A stretch of 64,000 nucleotides of DNA from an uncultured Bacillota bacterium. GTDB lineage: Bacteria; Sysuimicrobiota; Sysuimicrobiia; Sysuimicrobiales; Segetimicrobiaceae. The DNA lies in contig CAWDRG010000010.1 in the NCBI GenBank assembly GCA_963804645.1, positions 128,001 to 192,000 on the forward strand. The letters run 5' to 3'. A program made the position numbers and the translations under genes. Numbering within the stretch: position 1 is the stretch's first letter; each line of letters opens with the position of its first letter. Shown piece by piece: positions 1-56,401 of the stretch. The notes beneath the pieces are model-generated. The model did not search any database, was not told where the DNA came from, and saw only the letters and a list, made by a program, of their open reading frames with translations.

Positions 1-3000
1 AGCTGCATCGTGCTCCCCGCGTTCACCTGCATCGTCCCGTTGTTCGTTACGGTGCCGCCGCCGTTGAACAGCAGGGTCTGCCCGGGCGCGTTGGCAAGCA
101 ACGTCCCCGCGGCGTCGTTGACCACCGACAGCCCGTTGTCGCCGATATTCCCCGCGCCCTGGATGGTATTGTCGACGTTGGTCAGGGTCAGGCCGCCCGC
201 CGTCTGGAAGATGATGGGGGTTCCGCCGCCGCCGGCCGTGGACAGCGTCACCGTACCCCGCCCCGCCCTGTAGCGTCGTGTCGGCGTTGATCTCGACGTC
301 GGTATTGACGCCGCTCCCCGCGTTGATCTGGATGTTGCCGAGGTTGTCGAACGTCCCGAAGAGCGCCGTGGTGCTCGAGAGGGCGGCAGTATAGGTGCTC
401 CCCGCGCTCACGGTCAACGCGCCCTGGGAGGTCCCATCCAAGGTCGCGGACTGTCCTTGCGGCGTGCCAAGGGTCCCGCCACTCAGCGTATTCAGCGTCC
501 CGCCCGAGATAGTGGCGCCGCTTTGGATGCTCACCGTGGCGCCGGCGCCGTTCGCGGTGATGTTACCGCCAAGATTGTTCACGTGATTCTCGATCACCAG
601 GTTGCCGCTGTTCGTGGCTTCCAGCAGCCCGGCGTTCGTCACCAGTCCCCCGCCATCCATCGTCAGGGTCGTCGTGAGGCCGCCGCCCGTCGAGTTCGCG
701 TCGATCACTCCGCCGGCCTCGTTGGTCACCGCGAGCCCATTGTTGCCGAGGATGCCTTCGCCCTGGATGGTGTTGTTCACGTTCACGAGGGTCATGCCGC
801 CCGCAGACTGCTCGATGAACGCGGCGCCGCCGCCGGTGGCCGAGGACAGGTTCACCGTGCCCCCACCCTGCAGCGTCAGCGTGAGTTGGCTGCCGTTCCC
901 CAGCAACACGATCGTGTTGACGCCCGAGCCCCCGTTGATCTGGAACGTGTTGTCGTTGTTGATCGTGCCGAGGAGAGTAGTCGTGGAGCTCAGGGCGCTG
1001 GTAAACGTGCCGTTGAGCGTGATCGGCCCCGCGGTACCCCCGTCCAACGTCGCCGACTGGCCGACCGGCACGCCCAGGGTCCCGCCGTTGTTGTTCAGCG
1101 TCCCGCCCTGGATGATGGTGCCGCTTTGCAGGGTCACCGTGGCGCCGGCGCCGTTGGCGGTGATGTTGGCACCGGCGTTGTCCACGTTAGTCTCGATCAG
1201 CAGGTTGCCGCTGTTCGTGGCTTCCAGCAGCCCGGCGTTCGTCACCAGTCCCCCGCCGTCGAGCGTCAACGCCGTGATCAGCGGGCCGCCCGTCGAGTTC
1301 GCATCGATCACTCCACCGGCCTCGTTGAGCACCGTGAGCCCGTTGTTGCCGAGGATGCCCTCGCCCTGGATGGTGTTGTTGACGTTCGCCAGGGTCACGC
1401 CGCCCACAGCCTGCTCGATGAACGCGTCGCCGCCGCCCATGGTCGAGGACAGGTTCACCGTGCCCCCGCCCTGCAGCGTCAGCGTGAGTTGGGTGCCGCT
1501 CCCCAGCTCCACGATCGTGTTGACGCCCGAGCCCCCGTTGATCTGGAACGTGTTGTCGTTGTTGATCGTGCCGAGGAGAGTAGTCGTGGAGCCGAAGTCG
1601 GCGGTATACGTGCCGTTGAGCGTGATCGGCCCAGCGGTACCCCCGTCCAACGTCGCCGTCTGGTTTACCGGCGTACCCAGGAACCCGCCGTTGTTGGTCA
1701 GCGTCCCGCCCTGGATGGTGGTTTGGATGCTCACCGTGGCGCCGGCGCCGTTTGCGGTGATGTTACCGCCGGCGTTGTCCACGGTGTTATCGAGCACCAG
1801 GTCGCCGCTGTTCGTGGCTTCCAGCAGCCCGGCGTTCGTCACCAGTCCCCCGCCGTCGAGCGTCAACGTCGTGATCAGGCCGGGGCCGCCGGTCGAGTTC
1901 GCGTCGATCACTCCACCGGCCTCGTTGGTCACCGTGAGCCCGTTGTTGCCGAGGATGCCCTCGCCCTGGATGGTGTTGTTGACGTTTAGGAGCGTGACGC
2001 CGCCCACACTCTCCTCGATGAACGCGTCGCCGCCACCAACGGGCGTGGACACGTTCACCGTGCCCCCACCCTGCAGCGTCACCGTCGTGGCGCTCGCGGT
2101 CCCCAGGAACGTTATCGTGTTGGTGCCCGCGCCCCCGTCGATCTGTATCGTGCCGAGGTTGTTGATCGTGCCGGCGAGGAACAACTCCGTGTTCAGGGCG
2201 CTGGTAAACGTGCCGTTGATCGTCACCGCACCCGCCGCCGTGCTTCCGTCCAGATTACCTACATTCCCCGTCAGCACGCCCAAGGTCCCGCCGGCGTTGG
2301 TCAGCGTCCCGCCCTGGATGTCCGCGGCCAAAAGATTCACCGTGCTGCCGCTGCCGGCCAGGATGGTGCCGCCTGCGTTGTTCACGGTTGCAGTCACAAT
2401 CGCCAGCGTGCCGCCACTCGTGGCTTCGAGCAGATTCGTATTGGTGACCCCGCCGCCGGCGTCGATCTCCAACTCGCCCGTTCCCGGCACGTTGGCATCG
2501 ACGATGCCCTGATTGTTCAGGGCCAACCCGCCGTCCCCGACGAGGCCCGTGCCCTGAATCGTGTTATCGGCGTTGGTCAGCGTGACCCCGCCTACGCCCT
2601 GTAGGATGATCGCGTTACCGAAGCCGCTGGTCAGCGTCACGGTCCCCCCGCCCGACAGCGTGGTACTGGCATCGAGCTCCAGCAGGGTATTGAAGCCGCT
2701 CCCGGCGTTGATCACGATGTTGCCGCCGTTGATAATTTGCGACCCGTTGGTAATCAGCGTGCTGTTCAGACTCATGTTCAGCGTGTTGTTCGGGTCGACT
2801 TGGAGGCTGTCGACGTTCGCGGTGAACCCGGTGTCGAACGTCACGGTCGTGGGAGTCCCCAAGGTGCCGTTGGTGATGCAGACGTTGGTGCCGGCGCCGT
2901 TGGGCACCGTCCCGGTGCTCCAGTTCGACCCTGTGTTCCAGTTGCTGTTGCCGTCAGTCCACGACGTGGGACTCGCCAAGGTGCACGCCGCGGACGCCGG

Positions 3001-47116: not shown

Positions 47117-49078
47117 GTGCCGGTCGTGCGATGGGAAGACCTCATTCCGCGATGGAGCGGCGCGGAACCGTTCGGCGAGGTCATCGGTCACCACCCAAGC
47201 GTCGTCTGCGGGCCGCTCGCCGTCGGGCTGTGGGCGGCGCCGGCGCTCGCGTCCGCGGACGTGGGCTCCGGAACGGACGGACGCGACCTCCTCGTCGCCT
47301 GTTGGGACGCGTGCTTCGAGGGAGGTGTCTACCGCTTCCGAGGCCTCACCGCGGAGCTGAACGTCGAGGGGCCGGCCGAGCGCATTCCCGGCCTCTTTGG
47401 AAACGTCGATTCCGTGCCGCTGAGCGCCTCGTCTGCGCTGCTCAGCGTGACGCGGGACCGCCCCGAGGTCCTGCTGCGACAGGGAGGCTCTGCCGGGGAG
47501 CCGGCGGCCCTCGAGCTCGAGATCCTATGGGTGCGCGGTCCCGAGACGCTGCACGTCGTCAGAGCCTGCGACCTCGACGGCGACGGCATGTGGGACCTCC
47601 TGATCGGGACGGACGATTGGACGGACTACTGGCCGGACCGGCGCGAGTGGAACGATCCAGACTATCGCCCGTACGACGCGGGCGGCGGGTGGCGCGGGGG
47701 ACCGCTCCGGGGCCACGTCTACGCGGCGCTCAACAGCGGCACCAACGAGCGGCCCCGCTTCGAGCGGGCGCGGCCGCTCGTGTGCGGGAGCCAGGCCTTG
47801 GAGGTGTACGGGGCTGCGGCGCCCGCGTGGGCGGATTTTCTGGTGTGCGGACGGCCGGACCTGGTGTGTGGAGATTTCCTCGACCAGCTCTGGTTTTTCC
47901 GGCACGTCGGCGGTCTCGCGTTCGATCCGCCGGTACCGGTCCTCGGCCCGGACGGTCGTGCCCTCAAGCTCCCGCAGAACATCCACGTGCCGATCGCCGT
48001 GCCGAGCGTCGACGGACGCGACGGACATTCGCGTCCGCCGGCGCTCCTGGTCGGCGCGGAGGACGGACTGGTGCAGCGACTTGCTCCATTGTCTCCAGCG
48101 GCGCGGACGCCAGCGTACGCCATGCCCGGGCCCGTGCTTCAACCCTGGCCCCCGCTCCACCCCGGAATCGTCCCGGTCCCGACGGTATGCGACTGGACAA
48201 ACGGCGGCGGCCGGGACCTCATTATCGGCACCGGCGGAGGATGGCTGCGTTGGTATCCTGACCTGGGCGGCGATCCCGTGCGTCGCCACGGAGAACCGCT
48301 CACACTCCGGACGGCATCGCGTCCGATTCGGATACAGGCGGGGCACAACGGGTCTATTCAGGGACCCTCCGAAGCGAAATGGGGCTACCTGTGTCCCACC
48401 GCCGCAGACTGGGACGACGACGGTCGCGTGGAGATCTTGGCGAGCGACGTGATGGGCCGCCATCTTCTGTTTGCTCGCACGGGTGACCCCAGCGTCCTGG
48501 AGGAACCGGTGACGCTCCGCTACGGCAGCACGCCACTGCGTACCGCTTGGCGGGTACGCCCGGCGGTCACGGAATGGGGCGGCGCTCGCGGCGATCGACG
48601 ATACGTGTGCGTGGACAGCGACGGTCTGCTGGTCGATCTGGCTCAGGCCGGCCTGGACCTCCTCTCAGACAAACGCGTGCTCCGGTACGCGGACGGCGTC
48701 CCCATCGCGTTCACGGAGGACGGCGGCGGAGGCCTCGGTCGCGTCAAGCTCGCGGTCTGCGATTGGACCGGTTCGGGACTCGGCGACCTGCTGGTGGGAA
48801 CGCACGCGCGGGCATCGGTGCCTCCTGGTCTCTCGGGCGCACCCCGACACACGCACGGACAGGCAACGGTGCTGCTGCTCGAGAATCTCGGGACGCCCGG
48901 GCACCCGACGTTCGGACGGCCCCGCCAACTCTGCTATCGTGGAGCGCCGGTCCGGTACGGCATGCACGCATGCTCACCCGCGCCCGCGGACTGGTTCGGA
49001 CGGGGCGTCCTCGATCTGGTCGTCGGTGCCGAAAGCGGAACGCTCGTACTGTTGAGGCGGGAGTGGCTCACCTGGTAG
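47117..49078 (+). CDS. FG-GAP/VCBS-repeat beta-propeller protein, no obvious signal peptide
   Basis: Repeated DLDGDGMWDLLIG, DWTNGGGRDLIIG, DWDDDGRVEIL, DWTGSGLGDLLVG, DWFGRGVLDLVVG. Confidence 0.8.
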   Translation: MPVVRWEDLIPRWSGAEPFGEVIGHHPSVVCGPLAVGLWAAPALASADVGSGTDGRDLLVACWDACFEGGVYRFRGLTAELNVEGPAERIPGLFGNVDSVPLSASSALLSVTRDRPEVLLRQGGSAGEPAALELEILWVRGPETLHVVRACDLDGDGMWDLLIGTDDWTDYWPDRREWNDPDYRPYDAGGGWRGGPLRGHVYAALNSGTNERPRFERARPLVCGSQALEVYGAAAPAWADFLVCGRPDLVCGDFLDQLWFFRHVGGLAFDPPVPVLGPDGRALKLPQNIHVPIAVPSVDGRDGHSRPPALLVGAEDGLVQRLAPLSPAARTPAYAMPGPVLQPWPPLHPGIVPVPTVCDWTNGGGRDLIIGTGGGWLRWYPDLGGDPVRRHGEPLTLRTASRPIRIQAGHNGSIQGPSEAKWGYLCPTAADWDDDGRVEILASDVMGRHLLFARTGDPSVLEEPVTLRYGSTPLRTAWRVRPAVTEWGGARGDRRYVCVDSDGLLVDLAQAGLDLLSDKRVLRYADGVPIAFTEDGGGGLGRVKLAVCDWTGSGLGDLLVGTHARASVPPGLSGAPRHTHGQATVLLLENLGTPGHPTFGRPRQLCYRGAPVRYGMHACSPAPADWFGRGVLDLVVGAESGTLVLLRREWLTW

Positions 49079-49835
49079 GCTGCGCGCCGCGCGAGAAATC
49101 GCGAAACCGCGAGCGCCCGCGGATCGCTGCGGCCCGGTCCTCGCGGCCGGGCGTGAGGCCACGGGAGATGCCGGCGCTGCCGGGCACTCGTCGAAACGGG
49201 TCATACCGACTGGCAGACTGAACGGACGCACCTACCCAACGCGCGCTCAGGACATGGTGCCGGGCCCAACCAACCTGGATCGGACCGTGGGCAACGCTGA
49301 TCATGGCGGCGGATACCCAAAGACGTTGAGGCGCCGGTGCCCAGTCCCCGATCATCGGAACTTGGGGAGACTGGGCGAATCGGACACTCAAAGAAGTCCG
49401 CGGCAGCTTGGCGAACACCCTGTCGACGCACGAACGCCGCGGCCTAGACGTAGGGGATGGCACATGCGCGCGCGAACAGGGCTCCAGTAAGTTCGCCCCA
49501 GCCGCCCCCTGGAAGGCGCCGTGCACGACGCTCCCAACGTGTCCGCTCACCCACGCGAGTTATCTCGCCCCAGGCAAAGTGGTCCTGCTGCTGCTCGTCG
49601 CGCATGCCGTGGCGGTCGTTCTGCCCGACACGCTGCGCCGCACACGCGGCCGCAACTTGGGAATCCACGCTTAACCCTAGGCAAAAATATTTGAAATTTT
49701 GAGAGCGTCGCAAGTTGCGTGGGTCCCGAGAGTCGACTGGGCTCACAGATCGGTATCGTGCGGTTGCCAGGCCCTGAACGCCGGCCGGCCTTCAAGCACA
49801 ACACGTCTCCCGCTCCCCACCGGCGGAGGGGCCGA

Positions 49836-50225
49836 TCATGCGTAGCTCTGCTCTGCGATGAGCCGGGTAGGGTAGCCGAGAATGGTGCGGACGGTCCTGG
49901 CGTCTTTGGCAACGTAGACGAAAGCGTCGCCGTCGATCTGGTACTGGCCGGTCCACCCGATGGTGAAACTGGTGGCCGTATCTTCCACCTGCACTGGCAG
50001 AGGATCGCCCTCGCGGGCCACCGGCGTGGCGAGTTGATCGGCAGGATCCAAGACCCAGGCGTCGCCCGTCTCGGAGGAGAAGAGGACGAGTGGCCCGACG
50101 GTGATGATCCGACTGTCGTAGTCGGCGGCGCGGCGTTGAATGTACTGCACTTCGTCGGCGAGCCGCCACCTCGCTCCGTCCACCAACCTGGTCTCGTGGC
50201 CCTGCTTGCGCGATCGCCGAGCCAT
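49836..50225 (-). CDS. Hypothetical 129-aa accessory protein, divergent from the putative transposase
   Basis: Globular, non-shadow composition (GPLVLFSSETGDAWVLDP, GWTGQY); GAGGTGG upstream. Confidence 0.7.
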   Translation of the reverse strand: MARRSRKQGHETRLVDGARWRLADEVQYIQRRAADYDSRIITVGPLVLFSSETGDAWVLDPADQLATPVAREGDPLPVQVEDTATSFTIGWTGQYQIDGDAFVYVAKDARTVRTILGYPTRLIAEQSYA

Positions 50226-50277
50226 GCGCGTGTGTCCACCTCGGGTCCTATCTGCGGCGCGGGAGGGACCGATCCCG

Positions 50278-51897
50278 ATGGAACGATTCTACCAATTGTT
50301 TGGCAAGTTCCTCGTGTTTGTCTACCATTGTTTCGATCGCATCGTGATCAACGGCTACTTGACCGGCCTGATGCGCCCGGAGAATGCGGTGTATTTTTTC
50401 CGAGACGTCCTGGGACGCCGCGCCATCACCAAAGAGGTGCTGCGGCAGCGGACCACCGATTACGCCCACTGGGTCGAGGCCTACGCGCGGAATCACCATG
50501 TGCCCATCGAGTGGGCTGCGAAGGGGGTCCGGAAAGAAGACTATGTGCGGCCGAGGCTGCGCCGGATGGAACGTGCGCACCGGTATGGGGTCTACTTCAT
50601 CTTCAAGAGCATGGAACAAGGCCTGACGTTTCGTTCCATCATGCCCAAGTTTCCCACTGCGGATCCCGATTACCGCATCCTCCGCCCGCACCGGAGCCGC
50701 TTCACGCACTACTACTTCTACCTCCGGGACCACATCCTTGGGCCGATGGTGGTGCGGGTCGCCTCGTTCGTGCCGTTTCATACGACCTACTACCTCAACG
50801 GGCACTCGTTCATCGAACAAGAGCTGACCCGAGTCGGGCTCGCCTTCCGCAAGGACGATAATGCGTTTCTGGCCGTCGCAGATCCGACCGCCCTCCAGGC
50901 GGCCGCCGATCGCCTGAGCCCAACCGTCATTCAGCATCGGCTTGACTACTGGACCCTCGTGCTTGGCCCGAAGTTTTCTCGACGCGAACGCCAAGCCATG
51001 ATGCTGCGCCGGTTCTACTTTCTCCAACAGGTCGAATACTGCCGAAACTTCATCTTCAAGCGGTGCTTCCCGATCCACACGCTTTTTGAGCGGTCCTGCG
51101 AGCTCGGCCTCAGCCAGTTGACCGCGCACCAGCTCTCCGAGGTCTTCGGCCTACGCCTGACCAAGCGGCTCAAGGGGAAGTTGCACACCACGCTCGAGCA
51201 ACTCGCACAAGGCCATCATATCCTCCGGATCTATTGCAAGAGCGCCTTCCTCCGGCAGTACGAGAAGTTCGCCATGTTCCTGCGCAACGAGCTCTGCTCC
51301 AATAACCTCGCCGACTTCCAGCTGAAGAAAGGCCTCGCGCATCTGGGCGCCGTGCGGGAGACGTTTCTCGCCATCACCGACCGCTTCGCCGACGCGCAGG
51401 CGCAGTGGCTCAACGTCCACGTGGAGTTTCCACTCCTCCAACGCGTGGCGCTCCCGATTCAGGTCGGTACCGCCAAGGTGCCGGGCATCAAGATTCACGA
51501 CGCCCGCATGATCCGCCTCATGGAAGTGCTGCTGGACGGGCGCACCATCATCGGTGGTCAGCGGGCGACAGAACTGCACCAGGCTGTCGTGACTCGATTC
51601 CATCTCTCCGCCGAGCGGTACGGGCTCAACCAACTCCGGTACGACCTCCGCAAGCTCCGGGCGCATGGGCTCCTCCAACGGGACGGCCGCCGCTACGCAT
51701 ATCGCCTGACCGACAAGGGGCTCCGCGTCGCTCTTCTCTTCCTGCTCTTCCATCAGCGACTCTGCGGACCTCTCGCTCACAGCCTCTTTCATCACCGGCC
51801 CGATCCCAAGACCCAGCTCAACAGTCCTCTCGAAGCGGCCTACCACAAAGCCGATGCGGCGATTCAGGACATCATTCAGCTGTTGCAGGCTGCTTGA
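50278..51897 (+). CDS. Putative transposase/Rep-like protein with C-terminal winged helix
   Basis: GGGAGGG RBS; CFDRIVINGYL N-terminus; LRQYEK...LRNE; YDLRKLRAHGLL...YRLTDKG; basic, aromatic-rich. Confidence 0.65.
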   Translation: MERFYQLFGKFLVFVYHCFDRIVINGYLTGLMRPENAVYFFRDVLGRRAITKEVLRQRTTDYAHWVEAYARNHHVPIEWAAKGVRKEDYVRPRLRRMERAHRYGVYFIFKSMEQGLTFRSIMPKFPTADPDYRILRPHRSRFTHYYFYLRDHILGPMVVRVASFVPFHTTYYLNGHSFIEQELTRVGLAFRKDDNAFLAVADPTALQAAADRLSPTVIQHRLDYWTLVLGPKFSRRERQAMMLRRFYFLQQVEYCRNFIFKRCFPIHTLFERSCELGLSQLTAHQLSEVFGLRLTKRLKGKLHTTLEQLAQGHHILRIYCKSAFLRQYEKFAMFLRNELCSNNLADFQLKKGLAHLGAVRETFLAITDRFADAQAQWLNVHVEFPLLQRVALPIQVGTAKVPGIKIHDARMIRLMEVLLDGRTIIGGQRATELHQAVVTRFHLSAERYGLNQLRYDLRKLRAHGLLQRDGRRYAYRLTDKGLRVALLFLLFHQRLCGPLAHSLFHHRPDPKTQLNSPLEAAYHKADAAIQDIIQLLQAA

Positions 51898-52030
51898 GCG
51901 GGACTCGGTGCGCCCTTCTTGAAATCTTGAAGTGCTTCTGTCGAGGAAAGAGCGGCTAAGAATCTATAGACCACGAGCATTTCAAAGCGTATATTTTGGG
52001 TGGATAGGAGAACACGGGGCACCTGGACCT

Positions 52031-52118
52031 CCAGTCGATAAGAGCACCCTCCGATCGCGCGGAGGACGCAAAGCCACCGGGGCCCAATAACGGGACTAGC
52101 CGGGGCTGCCGAAGCTGG
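52031..52118 (+). ncRNA. GEMM-I riboswitch, A20 variant
   Basis: CCAGTCGATAAGAGCA-P2-GGACGCAAAGCCACCGGGG-P3-TAGCCGGGGCTGCCGAAGCTGG. Confidence 0.85.
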
Positions 52119-52145
52119 ACGCAACCGTCCAGCTTCTTTGATTTG
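52112..52145 (+). terminator. Intrinsic terminator overlapping the riboswitch P1 3' strand
   Basis: AAGCTGGACG-caac-CGTCCAGCTT followed by CTTTGATTT. Confidence 0.75.
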
Positions 52146-52346
52146 GGGAGGCTAGTCGGAGGCGCGCGGTGCGTGGGCTACTAGCCCGGCAAGATCGCGT
52201 AAGCACTGTGAGGCAGGAATGGGGGCGAGAATAAATTAGGGACAACGAGTCGGCTCGCGTGACGAATGATCGACCAATTACCCAAACCCGAGGCTGGGGG
52301 GACTCGGGCGCGCTAGGGAGGTTGGGACGCACTGGAGGAGTGGGTC

Positions 52347-54125
52347 ATGCAAGCAAGATCAAAGCTCCAGATGGTAATCATCGTAATACTTGGGATTTCT
52401 CTTACACTGTGGGGCATTCCCCTCGCGGGCCAAACACAGGAACCCCCATCAATCACTCGGACTGAGGGAATTCTCGCGTCCGTAGATCTTGCAGGCATGA
52501 CGGCGACGCTCAACATCCCCGCCGGGCAGCGCGTGTATGAACTGACGTCGGTCACCGATGTGCGCGTTGGCGAGGAGACAGAATCCATCAATGCACTGGC
52601 AACATTCGTCGGCGCGGCAGCGGTTGTGCTGTCGACCAATGTTAACGGTACCCAGGTTGCTGGGAGCTTGGACATCTTGGTCTTCCCCGTAGCCGGGACC
52701 GTGGAAGCTACCCTAGGAGCGGGGACGGAATACGGCGGCCCTCCTCCTGTTAGCGGTAGTCCGATTGTAAGTAACACGACGCGCGGCACTACCACTGGCG
52801 GCGGCGCTACTACTGGCGGCGGCACTACTACTGGCGGCGGCACTACTACCGGCGGCGGCACTACTACCGGCGGCAGCGGCAACAAAGGTGGTTGGGGCGG
52901 CTTTGGCGGTTGGGACTATTTCCGCGGTTGGGACCATTTCCGCGGTTGGGACCACTTCGGCGGTTGGGGCCGCTTCGACGGTCGGGACCGCTTCGGCGGT
53001 TGGGATCGCTTCGACGGTCGGGACCGCTTCGGCGGTTGGGATCGCTTCGACGGTCGGGACCGCTTCGGTGATAGGGACCCCTTCGGCGGTTGGGACGGTC
53101 GCGGCGGTTGGGGCGGCGTTGGGCCGTGTGCAATCTGCGATGATGCGCACGGGCTCATCCCTGACCCTAACCCTAAGGGCGGTAATCACAACGGCAAGGA
53201 TGGCGGCAAGGGTTACGATGGCGGCGGTAAGGGCGGCAGCCACGACCCCGGCTACGATGGCGGCGGTAAGGGCGGCAGCCACGACTCCGGCTACGATGGC
53301 GGCGGTAAGGGCGGCAGCCACGACCCCGGTTACGATGGCGGCGGTAAGGGCGGCAGCCACGACCCCGGCTACGATGGCGGCGGTAAGGGCGGCAGCCACG
53401 ACCCCGGCTACGATGGCGGCGGTAAGGGCGGCAGCCACGACTCCGGCTACGATGGCGGCGGTAAGGGCGGCAGCCACGACCCCGGTTACGATGGCGGCGG
53501 TAAGGGCGGCAGCCACGACCCCGGCTACGATGGCGGCGGTAAGGGCGGCAGCCACGACCCCGGCTACGATGGCGGCGGTAAGGGCGGCAGCCACGACCCC
53601 GGCTACGATGGCGGCGGTAAGGGCGGCAGCCACGACTCCGGCTACGATGGCGGCGGTAAGGGCGGCAGCCACGACCCCGGCTACGATGGCGGCGGTAAGG
53701 GCGGCAGCCACGACCCCGGCTACGATGGCGGCGGTAAGAGCGGCAGCCACGACCCCGGCTACGATGGCGGCGGTAAGGGCAACTACGGCGAGTCCATCGG
53801 CGAGCACGGATACGGCGGTGGCGATGACTACGGCAAGGGGTACGACGACAGCGGCCGTGACGGTGGCGGACATGATCGCGGCCACGAGAATGGCGGCCGT
53901 GACGGCGGCGGGCATGATCGCGGTCACGAGAACGGCGGCCATGAGAACGGCGGTCACGAGAATGGCGGTCATGAGGGCGGCGGCCATGAGGGCGGCGGCC
54001 ATGAGGGCGGCGGCCATGAGGGCAGCGGCCATGAGGGCGGCGGCCACGAAGGCGGCGGCCATGAGGGCGGCGGCCATGAGGGCGGCCACGATGGCGGCGA
54101 TCACGACTGCGGTGACAGAGGCTGA
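52347..54125 (+). CDS. Secreted protein: conserved N-domain plus multi-block Gly/His/Asp repeat tail
   Basis: GGAGG RBS; signal peptide; N-domain paralogous to 39077; [25 protein letters not shown] and GGGHE repeat blocks. Confidence 0.85.
53211..53780 (+). repeat. 39-bp tandem repeat, 14 full copies plus a partial ([12 protein letters not shown][P/S])
   Basis: Unit ggctacgatggcggcggtaagggcggcagccacgacccc; 14 x 39 bp spans 53211-53756. Confidence 0.95.
53930..54095 (+). repeat. 15-bp tandem repeat encoding (G/N)GGHE, about 11 copies
   Basis: ggcggcggccatgag units. Confidence 0.9.
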
Positions 54126-55269: not shown

Positions 55270-55379
55270 CCTCCGCTATGTCCGTCACCTCCCGTGCCGA
55301 CACTTTCGGCCCGCTCCCATGGTTACCGCGCTGCGGCGTTTCAGTTGCTCCCCCTGGGTGCGTGAGTTCCTTAGCCCAG

Positions 55380-56401
55380 GCCACCTGCTATCACCCGCTG
55401 CTGCTGTTCAACCGGGAGGGCGATTGTCTGGCGGTGAAGCTGCGGCCCGGGAACGTCCACAGCGCTGAGGACTGGGACGCCGCGCTCCTGCCGGAGATCG
55501 AGCGGCAGCAGAAGCAAGGCAAGGACGTCGTGGTGCGGGCCGACGCGGGCTTCACCAAGCCGGAGCTGTACGAGGTCCTGGAGAAGCGCGGCGTGAAGTA
55601 CGCGATTCGCATTCCCTTCAACGACACACTGGAGCAGGCTGTCGCGGAGTTGCTGACGAGGCCCGTGGGGAGACCCAGTCACAAGCCGGTGGTGCGGTAT
55701 ACGAGCTTCCGCTACGAAGCCGGCAGTTGGAAGATCGCGCGACGGGTGGTGGCGAAGATCGAGTTCCACTGCGAAGAACTGTTCCCCCGAGTGGGCTTTA
55801 TCGTCACAACCCTGGCGACGGATAGCCGGGGAGTGGTGCGGTTCTATAACAAGCGCGGGACGGCAGAACAGTGGATCAGGGCCGGCAAGGAGGCGGTGAA
55901 GCTGACGCGGCTGAGCTGCCACCGCTTCCGGGCGAACGAGGTGCGGTTGTGGCTGAGCGTGATCGCGTACAATCTGGGAAACTTGTGGCGCCGGCTCGGC
56001 CTGCCGAAGCGGCTCGACACGTGGTCGCTGACAAGTCTGCAGCAGCGGTGGATGAAAACGGGCGGCCGGCTCGTGAAGCACGCCCGGTACTATTGGCTGT
56101 TGCTGGCGGAGGAACACCTGACCCGGCGGCTGTTCGGGGCGATCCTGCGACGGCTGGAGGCGGTGCCGGGGCCTGCGGGATAGCGCAGGCCCTCGCTCGT
56201 TGCAGCCACCTCGGGCGGCAAGGGGGCCGAGAATGGGGCAGTGTCCGAGAAATCGAATGGGGGTACGTCCGTACCAGGTGGGAAAGGGCGCGGGAGGATC
56301 AAACAGGCTTTCGCGGGTGGCTGCTGGACGCGGGCCAGCCCGAAGGTCGGATCGGAACCTCTCGTAGGAGGACCTCGGAAACGCAAAACGGAAATTCCCG
56401 A
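55380..56401 (+). mobile_element. 5'-truncated IS1380-family element (transposase fragment ends 56183; right end about 56401)
   Basis: CYHPL...LRPGNVHSA, VRADAGF, YNKRGTAEQWI, AYNL motifs; end-like CAAAACGGAAATTCCCG. Confidence 0.85.

Follow-up and report, generated by a model that had tools for sequence, protein, structure and literature searches.

A recently active insertion sequence with a putative TBP-fold, Rep_trans-like transposase in an uncultured Sysuimicrobiota bacterium

We analysed a stretch of 64,000 nucleotides (hereafter, the window) from the genome of an uncultured Bacillota bacterium of the GTDB lineage Sysuimicrobiota (GenBank assembly GCA_963804645.1, contig CAWDRG010000010.1, positions 128,001 to 192,000 of the forward strand). 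Window positions 49677–51966 are a recently active insertion sequence (IS), with its mobility, copy number, ends and target established. The element carries a gene for a 539-residue protein, its putative transposase, and a divergent gene for a 129-residue protein; these open reading frames (ORFs) are referred to below as ORF539 and ORF129. There is little doubt, in our judgement, that the element is mobile and that ORF539 is its transposase. Only a few enzyme classes account for all transposases, and additions to them are rare. We estimate at roughly 60% the probability that the family of this element represents a new mechanistic class of prokaryotic transposon, namely an IS moved by a tyrosine nuclease of the Rep_trans superfamily with the fold of the TATA-binding protein (TBP). 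To our knowledge, a TBP-fold Rep_trans nuclease is absent from the recognised transposase classes (DDE, DEDD, HUH, serine and tyrosine recombinases, and Cas1).

Copies, ends and target of the element

Four copies of the element were found by BLASTN on three contigs of the genome (C10, C15, with two copies, and C17). They were 99.7–99.8% identical at the DNA level from window position 49677 to about 51966, and the ORF539 protein was encoded four times with 100% identity. The span common to the four copies (49677–51966, forward strand) measures 2290 bp including the trinucleotide CTA at both junctions, i.e., 2287 bp plus one CTA. The flanks of the four copies were mutually unrelated. The GC content of the element was 61.5%, versus 66–70% for the contigs of the genome. 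No miniature derivatives or solo ends were detected in the genome, where the left end occurred only in the four full copies. In one copy (G000:C15:375975-378253, locus L003), the right end differed and was 4 nt shorter, still finishing in ATCTA, and the right flank opened with a stretch rich in A that looks like the left end of the element itself. This could reflect end decay or an aberrant termination event.

Two runs (X1 and X6) of a single peat-metagenome study yielded assembled contigs that contain the empty site and join position 49676 straight to position 51964. The short side of this joint comprised 34 letters, and three letters (CTA) fitted either side; joints with short sides of less than 31 letters, or from other family members at 90% likeness, were left out. 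A contig from a run of another study (X2) covered positions 49399–50691 and spanned the occupied left junction. The insertion is therefore polymorphic in nature. Genomes of the same genus yielded no usable empty sites, their flanks being only 70–79% alike. The initial annotation had proposed a mobile IS-like element and a search for further copies and empty sites. With four copies at least 99.7% identical and a precise empty site, the locus proved neither single-copy nor fixed, and both ends could be defined. The left boundary had been placed at 49671, which was wrong, as the copies share a start at 49677.

The ends were located by short patterns in 84 loci, consisting of the four copies from this genome and 80 relatives. 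The latter were the best 80 of 294 confirmed relatives among 317 stretches that matched the search patterns of a scan of species-representative genomes, with an eight-sequence alignment as its query. Exact ends were obtained from within-genome comparisons in seven genomes. The left end starts CTAGGCAAAAATATTTGAAATTT and forms a 23-nt block (49677–49699, forward strand) composed of CTA followed by G-G/C-CAAA-n-ATATTTGAAATTT. In an alignment of 57 distinct left ends, this block was near-invariant across phyla, the sole freely varying position being the one between CAAA and ATATTTG. The right end, GCTAAGAATCTA (51955–51966, forward strand), finishes AAGAATCTA. Alignment of 52 distinct right ends revealed three blocks: TTGTTGAAsT, then TTyTGTyTAmGA, and then the final consensus GGTAAGAATCTA. 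Both the 23-nt left end and the AAGAATCTA right end were near-invariant in Acidobacteriota, Verrucomicrobiota, Proteobacteria and Nitrospira.

As described initially, the two borders share a sequence. The 12-mer TTGAAATYTTGA occurred twice, in direct orientation, and at no other site in the window, with zero occurrences expected from 100 shuffles. Its left copy (TTGAAATTTTGA, 49691–49702, forward strand) is a candidate binding site for the winged helix of ORF539, and its right copy (TTGAAATCTTGA, 51919–51930, forward strand) equates to the TTGTTGAAsT block of the family. On the left, TTGAAAT lies within the near-invariant 23-nt end, whereas the right 12-mer was kept across relatives only as the looser TTGTTGAAsT, so that the general form of the shared 12-mer is a TTGAA core in direct orientation at both ends. 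There were no terminal inverted repeats among the 25 longest inverted repeats, and the ends were mutually unlike (57 left and 52 right sequences).

CTA was present at both junctions (49677–49679, forward strand, and 51964–51966) and once in the empty site. The target consensus derived from 74 independent insertions was A-R-N-N-CTA|R. The base at position −4 from CTA was A in 70 of the 74 unique left flanks, the base at −3 was A or G in 63 of the 74, and the first base past the right CTA was a purine in 57 of 67 unique right flanks. Loci lacking the motif and those too near a contig end were omitted from this set; an upstream CTA was missing at L049, which was cut by the contig start, and at L080. 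As the left CTA was demanded by the search pattern, its constancy in the set is by construction, but it was seen independently in every within-genome comparison. The left CTA may come from the target or from the element, or it may be one copy of a 3-bp duplication. In at least three relatives (L058, L063 and L088), the right end was TTA and the left junction CTA, and thus the right CTA would be the element's and the left CTA the target's. The aligned junctions lean towards this assignment without being decisive, and a 3-bp duplication cannot be told apart from insertion beside a target CTA. The initial statement that no target-site duplication is evident holds insofar as there is no unambiguous duplication; it has to be qualified in that CTA stands at both junctions and once in the empty site.

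ORF539 and its predicted fold

ORF539 (50278–51897, forward strand, stop codon included) had a GC content of 0.65, 0.38 and 0.79 at the three codon positions. It matched no transposase or recombinase family in Pfam, NCBIfam or PHROGs, in agreement with the initial finding of no DDE, DEDD, HUH or recombinase signature. NCBIfam includes models for ISfinder families. Release 20 of this collection returned only two chance-level matches (E 0.1), both to unrelated families, and the view that the element lies outside the common IS families was upheld by this lack of a match among curated IS-family models. A sequence search of the Protein Data Bank (PDB) with ORF539 and with a 19-sequence profile gave no useful match, and the ESM Atlas gave only unnamed clusters. 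Pfam produced only weak helix-turn-helix matches, below the cut-offs, near residues 445–484. We rejected the possibility that ORF539 is a MarR-, PadR- or ArsR-type regulator, as the winged helix makes up only residues 383–508 of 539 and these Pfam matches were below the cut-offs.

The N-terminal domain (residues 1–382; 50278–51423, forward strand) was modelled alone with AlphaFold (pLDDT 92.1, pTM 0.90). The model contained two five-strand modules that together form a crescent-shaped, 10-stranded antiparallel sheet of TBP-like topology. In the AlphaFold model, this tandem TBP-like, Rep_trans-like domain is followed by a winged-helix DNA-binding domain (residues 383–508; 51424–51801, forward strand), confirming the C-terminal winged helix recognised earlier from the sequence. 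Among the matches listed, the only structures matching the whole N-terminal domain were TBP, RepDE and RepSTK1. In a Foldseek search of the PDB, the chains of RepSTK1 (4cij) were matched at E-values of 5.7e-4 to 1.3e-3 and probabilities of 0.92–0.98 (4cij_C being the best, at 0.98), and TBP (1ais) was matched at an E-value of 1.4e-3. The di-domain polyketide cyclase 4xrw was at the top by E-value, but it was rejected because its VIA match covers only one half of the domain. RNase H-like and HUH chains were absent from the listed matches of the N-terminal domain, and the full-length model retrieved Tn5 transposase at a probability of 0.08. The Foldseek comparison, which the initial annotation had proposed, thus pointed, among the matches listed, to Rep_trans and not to a DDE or other known IS transposase, although a family need not appear in such a list.

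A Foldseek search of viral models (BFVD) with the N-terminal domain yielded 27 matches at E ≤ 0.001. The third-ranking match was A0A345MNV4 (E 2.5e-5, probability 1.00), which stood beside giant-virus TBPs and other Inoviridae proteins. According to the 2026 Rep-Arvir paper (PMC13107129), A0A345MNV4 is an Inoviridae Rep_trans (PF02486) protein, and Rep_trans proteins have a TBP fold.

The Rep_trans (PF02486) family includes pT181 RepC, pC221 RepD/RepDE (4cwc, 4cwe), pSTK1 RepSTK1 (4cij), the filamentous-phage initiators and the MOB_T relaxases. In Carr et al. 2016 (PMC4797284), the order of strands in the Rep_trans sheet is 2-3-4-5-1-6-11-10-9-8, and all catalytic residues are on its inner face. 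The metal ligands of RepDE are D46 (strand 1), D142 (strand 6, within R140-x-D142-x-A144-x-D146) and E214 (strand 11, within R212-x-E214); the nucleophile, Y191, is on strand 10 within R189-x-Y191-x-K193. Judging by the strands for which that source gives motifs, ORF539 has a putative counterpart for each. D20 (codon 50335–50337), on strand S1 (residues 12–28), is a proposed metal ligand and would correspond to D46 of RepDE and D9 of RepSTK1. E253 (codon 51034–51036), on strand S1′ (residues 245–260), is likewise a proposed metal ligand, its motif Q251-x-E253-x-C255-x-N257 taking the place of R140-x-D142-x-A144-x-D146. The proposed catalytic tyrosine, Y328 (codon 51259–51261), is on strand S4′ (residues 323–330) within R326-x-Y328-x-K330 (R326-Q-Y328-E-K330), the likely equivalent of R189-x-Y191-x-K193. 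R336-N-E338 (codons 51283–51291), on strand S5′ (residues 334–341), would correspond to R212-x-E214, including the metal ligand E214. All four sets of codons are on the forward strand.

The ranges of the VIA alignments (13..382/39..240 for RepDE and 12..380/1..252 for RepSTK1) set D46 and D9, respectively, at residue 20, if the first strand is ungapped. The RepC sequence taken from plasmid records showed the same short motifs, in unchanged order. Comparison with hhalign of hand-picked, structure-guided windows paired CFDRIVING with SFDAMTIVG and SAFLRQYEK with NRFIRIYNK, which is descriptive and not a test. One such window paired R317-x-Y319 with the Rep tyrosine motif instead; Y319 was rejected as the nucleophile, as it is variable (Y in 46 of 75 representatives). 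The initial annotation had pointed to a YEK-x4-LRNE motif and, from it, to a Rep_trans-like transposase. The motif was confirmed as Y328-E-K330-x4-L335-R336-N-E338 and was the best-conserved motif of the ORF539 family. Its location on the matching strands and the structural matches to 4cij (probability 0.98) and to the Inoviridae Rep_trans protein (E 2.5e-5) agree with this suggestion. We consider it probable that ORF539 belongs to the Rep_trans superfamily.

Conservation was counted over 150 family representatives (50% identity), fragments included, using only the sequences that cover each position. The proposed active-site residues ranked among the most conserved positions: D20 was present in 47 of 47 representatives, E253 in 77 of 83, K or R at 326 in 72 of 74, Y328 in 68 of 74, K330 in 68 of 75, R336 in 73 of 74 and E338 in 69 of 73. 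In 121 close relatives, all of these residues were kept wherever covered (Y328 in 121 of 121). The residues Y16, D20, R21, E113, F147, Y148, P166, F167, N174, N195, Q251, F260, F290, Y328, R336, E338, R410, Y455, G481 and P498 were invariant in the 19-sequence alignment, which extends down to 24% identity.

Proposed mechanism and its alternatives

From the modelled fold and the conserved residues on its strands, we infer the chemistry, which strand is cut and what kind of intermediate arises, and we regard a tyrosine-nickase, single-strand or rolling-circle-type transposase mechanism as a whole as reasonably likely. The winged helix would read the directly repeated, TTGAA-containing subterminal sites, and D20, E253 and E338 would hold a divalent metal. 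Y328, flanked by R/K326 and K330, would cut one strand beside CTA at each end and become covalently linked to the 5′ phosphate. Movement would then proceed via a single-stranded or rolling-circle-type intermediate, with one strand transferred into the new site and joined next to CTA in an A-R-N-N-CTA|R target. Such a mechanism would explain why the ends are asymmetric and lack inverted repeats, and why the empty site contains only one CTA. A strand-specific nickase appears to be the best fit because one protein is sufficient, the two ends are unlike and carry direct, not inverted, repeats resembling binding sites, CTA both precedes the element and closes it, and the fold and residue layout of ORF539 match those of a metal-dependent tyrosine nickase. 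By analogy, the mechanism would resemble that of the HUH elements IS91 and IS200/IS605, on an unrelated fold.

A second cluster of conserved polar residues is located on the first, pseudo-symmetric half of the sheet (residues 104–176; window about 50587–50805). It comprises E113 (82 of 85 representatives), Y146 (84 of 88), Y148 (87 of 89) and D151 (86 of 88), and N174 is near-invariant as well. This cluster may form either another active centre or a surface for binding DNA. In a bolder variant of the mechanism, the Y146/Y148 cluster could act as a second active centre, allowing one monomer to cut both ends like the two-tyrosine HUH enzymes.

Several results weigh against a Rep_trans-type nickase. 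The second cluster has no counterpart in the Rep_trans motifs of Carr et al. In the VIA alignment, TBP scored above the Rep structures. Neither PF02486 (Pfam cut-off 29.6 bits) nor PF25227, the family of the Rep-Arvir initiators, matched ORF539 or 19 family members at E ≤ 1, and a scan with PF02486 came out empty for this genome and for 60 genomes from the same phylum, with a positive Bacillus subtilis control. Alignment with hhalign of the 19-sequence family profile to five plasmid Rep_trans proteins, which form a small alignment of low diversity, gave a probability of 0.3% and an E-value of 0.19. The residue equivalences were drawn from the order of strands, the periodicity of motifs and the ranges of alignments, not from superposed coordinates, and Y328 and E338 are 10 residues apart, versus 23 for the corresponding residues of RepDE. 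At the DNA level, RNAalifold predicted no consensus hairpin at the right end on either strand from 46 distinct sequences (three poorly aligned rows, L047, L083 and L092, had been removed), and right-end folds of single sequences were weak (0 to −7.7 kcal/mol). No circular or head-to-tail junctions were seen among the listed joints of assembled contigs, which drop rare forms. Finally, a cut-and-paste enzyme that duplicates 3 bp would just as well leave CTA at both junctions and a single CTA in the empty site.

An enzyme of the latter kind would cut both strands and would use its TBP-like fold in a way unlike Rep_trans chemistry. It would account for the CTA at both junctions in all four copies and in the relatives, with one CTA in the empty site, and for a target preference that finishes with CTA and then a purine. 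IS5- and Harbinger-like elements make 3-bp duplications at YTAR or TNA sites, and the target preference resembles that of the IS5 family. We nonetheless think it unlikely: the element has no terminal inverted repeats, its ends differ in sequence and layout, no DDE or RNase H family was matched by sequence, and the sole transposase listed in the fold searches was Tn5, at its probability of 0.08. The TTA right ends of L058, L063 and L088, with CTA on the left, also fit an element-encoded right CTA better, although a later mutation is possible.

The fold and domain layout of ORF539 are those of replication initiators, namely Rep_trans and Rep-Arvir proteins (TBP fold plus winged helix), and the two ends differ in the way expected of an origin and a terminator. 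The element might accordingly be imagined as an integrated rolling-circle replicon, plasmid- or satellite-like, in which the protein initiates episomal replication after excision and integration is a side reaction or made by the host. This seems to us rather improbable, given that all copies seen were chromosomal insertions at different sites with exactly identical ends, and that the short forms described below are 1.75 kb long, with one gene and neither a second-strand origin nor an integrase. Plasmid titles were absent from the 80 kept loci, though many short metagenome contigs stop at the element ends, and the relatives on megaplasmids were found at up to four places per record, as is typical of an IS. 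Least probable, and by our estimate very much so, is that ORF539 serves only as a DNA-binding factor, with a TBP-like saddle and a winged helix, while another enzyme moves the element in trans. Short forms without any other gene are multicopy across many phyla, there was no common neighbouring enzyme gene, and the flanks differed at every copy. Furthermore, the invariant D, E, Y, K, R and E on adjacent strands mirror an active site and not the DNA-binding face of TBP.

Family, genomic surroundings and related systems

The ORF539 family comprised at least 6489 relatives at E ≤ 0.001 (8000 candidates scored from a 90%-clustered collection). An exhaustive HMMER scan of 50%-identity representatives gave 6109 matches at E ≤ 0.001, 2966 at 1e-10 and 622 at 1e-30. 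Spread among related genomes was patchy, with matches in seven of 41, this genome counted. By title, the 80 kept loci belonged to Acidobacteriota, Verrucomicrobiota, Alpha- and Betaproteobacteria, Nitrospira, Planctomycetes and Armatimonadota, with one bin titled Thaumarchaeota; the Proteobacteria included the isolates Bradyrhizobium erythrophlei GAS478 and Caballeronia choica. Many near-identical copies were found in long-read genomes, e.g., nine loci in one Bryobacterales and five in one Terriglobia genome. Distant relatives (22–29% identity) were detected on Rhodococcus, Mycobacterium and Burkholderia-group megaplasmids, at up to four places per record. The expectation that automated pipelines would mislabel such proteins was correct: the names given among 120 relatives listed, mostly on contigs of ~2 kb, were all 'hypothetical protein', as were those of the megaplasmid relatives, apart from one 'ArsR family transcriptional regulator'.

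Two groups of loci departed from the general picture. The Thaumarchaeota locus (L045) is a 72%-identical copy on a 4.1-kb contig of a metagenome-assembled genome; it is a long form (2100 bp) without an ORF129 match, and a binning error or inter-domain transfer is possible. Three of the five GAS478 copies (L061, L064 and L067) had a tandem duplication of ~195 bp near the 3′ end, which lengthens the element (2281–2283 versus 2086–2087 bp) and the match to the large ORF. No IS with a Rep_trans or TBP-fold transposase was found in the full-text literature, a search that did not cover most subscription journals or ISfinder, and a description of the ORF539 family may exist elsewhere. A preprint on Replitrons reportedly names only HUH-based Rep transposons.

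ORF129 (49836–50225, reverse strand) lies head-to-head with ORF539, their start codons being 52 bp apart, as noted initially. Its codon-position GC content (0.65/0.49/0.80) was that of a real gene, with a third-position value like that of ORF539, and its homologues formed 1602 clusters at E ≤ 0.001 with strongly conserved blocks. Homologues were present at 45 of the 80 loci, without exception inside the element and in divergent orientation to the large gene. Its presence followed element length: it was found in 36 of 38 loci with elements of 2056–2435 bp and in none of 29 with elements of 1736–1765 bp (13 of the 80 loci, with an end not found or mis-called, were left out of this tally). The short forms encode only the ORF539 homologue and are still multicopy, and ORF129 is therefore not needed for movement. 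Thus, the accessory gene proposed initially is real, conserved and divergent, but it is optional. Its role is most likely that of a regulatory accessory. The ORF129 family had no Pfam match, with chance-level Pfam matches in two of 17 homologues, and NCBIfam and PHROGs gave no lead; structure searches gave only chance-level matches in the PDB and scores below 0.9 in the ESM Atlas. A predicted complex of ORF129 with ORF539 scored 0.00 in a run without controls, which speaks neither for nor against binding. IS91 reportedly has a small upstream ORF as well, Orf121 (bioRxiv 10.1101/2025.01.24.634351).

The element is located within an intergenic stretch of 3.3 kb. A promoter-like site, TAGACC-17-TATATT (51967–51995), begins at the first base past its right end and is followed by a c-di-GMP-I riboswitch (52033–52113; 36 bits versus a gathering score of 35), with a terminator-like stem-loop beside it (52111–52136). 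Apart from this riboswitch, there were no Rfam or tRNA matches in 48500–53000. Downstream of the riboswitch lies a 592-residue ORF (52347–54125) full of tandem repeats rich in Gly, His and Asp. As the right end abuts the promoter-like site, the polymorphic insertion may alter the expression of this riboswitch-controlled gene. A segment of about 175 bp immediately left of the insertion (49467–49643) recurred at 74–79% identity elsewhere in the genome (G000:C9:1707-1877) and in two genomes of the same genus (G004 and G002). A 301-residue ORF (55278–56183) may resemble the C-terminal portion of an IS4/IS1380-type DDE transposase; if so, another IS, of conventional type, is situated about 3.3 kb further right.

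Among known systems, the Rep_trans proteins resemble ORF539 in their curved sheet of 10 strands with a double TBP-like fold and in having an attached DNA-binding domain. In both, strand one carries an acidic residue, the second half opens with a strand bearing an acidic-x-small-x-D/N motif, and R/K-x-Y-x-K is succeeded by R-x-E one strand later. ORF539 differs from them in having no detectable sequence or profile similarity, in the size of the domain (about 380 residues with long helical inserts, versus about 200–230) and in its DNA binder, which is a winged helix and not the four-helix domain of RepD. It is also encoded by a multicopy chromosomal IS of 1.75–2.4 kb, unlike the plasmid, phage and conjugative context of Rep_trans. 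TBP itself, a eukaryotic and archaeal transcription factor, has no catalytic residues, whereas ORF539 has an invariant Tyr and acidic set, is part of a mobile element and shows no sequence similarity to TBP.

The Rep-Arvir/DUF7845 (PF25227) initiators of archaeal viruses and plasmids are described in PMC13107129 as having a TBP-fold domain followed by a MarR-like winged helix. On that description, they resemble ORF539 in the N-terminal TBP-fold domain (catalytic and of about 300 residues in Rep-Arvir), the subsequent winged helix and the C-terminal tail, in a relation to Rep_trans visible by structure only, and in the order of catalytic residues (acidic, acidic, Tyr, acidic), those of ORF539 being proposed (PMC13107129). 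The differences are that PF25227 did not match ORF539, that the ORF539 family is bacterial and not archaeal, that its tyrosine motif is R/K-x-Y-x-K, as in bacterial Rep_trans, and not the KHYYM given for Rep-Arvir in that source, and that its element is an IS and not a viral or plasmid replicon.

Further parallels are offered by the HUH transposons IS91/ISCR (Y2) and IS200/IS605 (Y1). These have no terminal inverted repeats, asymmetric ends and no clear target duplication, and they insert beside a short specific target by means of a Rep-type tyrosine enzyme. The element described here is like them in its lack of inverted repeats, asymmetric ends, short target and putative Rep-type tyrosine enzyme. 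The fold of ORF539, however, is unrelated, without an HUH motif; the protein matched none of the NCBIfam or Pfam models for IS91 and IS200/IS605, and no conserved subterminal hairpins were detected in the element.

If the ORF539 family nicks DNA as Rep_trans proteins do, rolling-circle-type transposition would have arisen on a second, unrelated fold, apart from IS91/ISCR, IS200/IS605 and Helitrons. The family would then link the rolling-circle initiators of plasmids and phages, the MOB_T relaxases and the archaeal Rep-Arvir proteins to transposition. The window contributes the long form of the element, with its optional conserved partner gene, and population evidence of recent movement. With its strict ends and short defined target, the element may also be of interest as a compact, single-protein system for DNA insertion. 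The family is abundant across soil and sediment phyla and has gone unseen by annotation. With so large a family passing as 'hypothetical' or regulatory proteins, counts for soil and sediment bacteria fall short in IS content, in genome plasticity and in assembly breaks.

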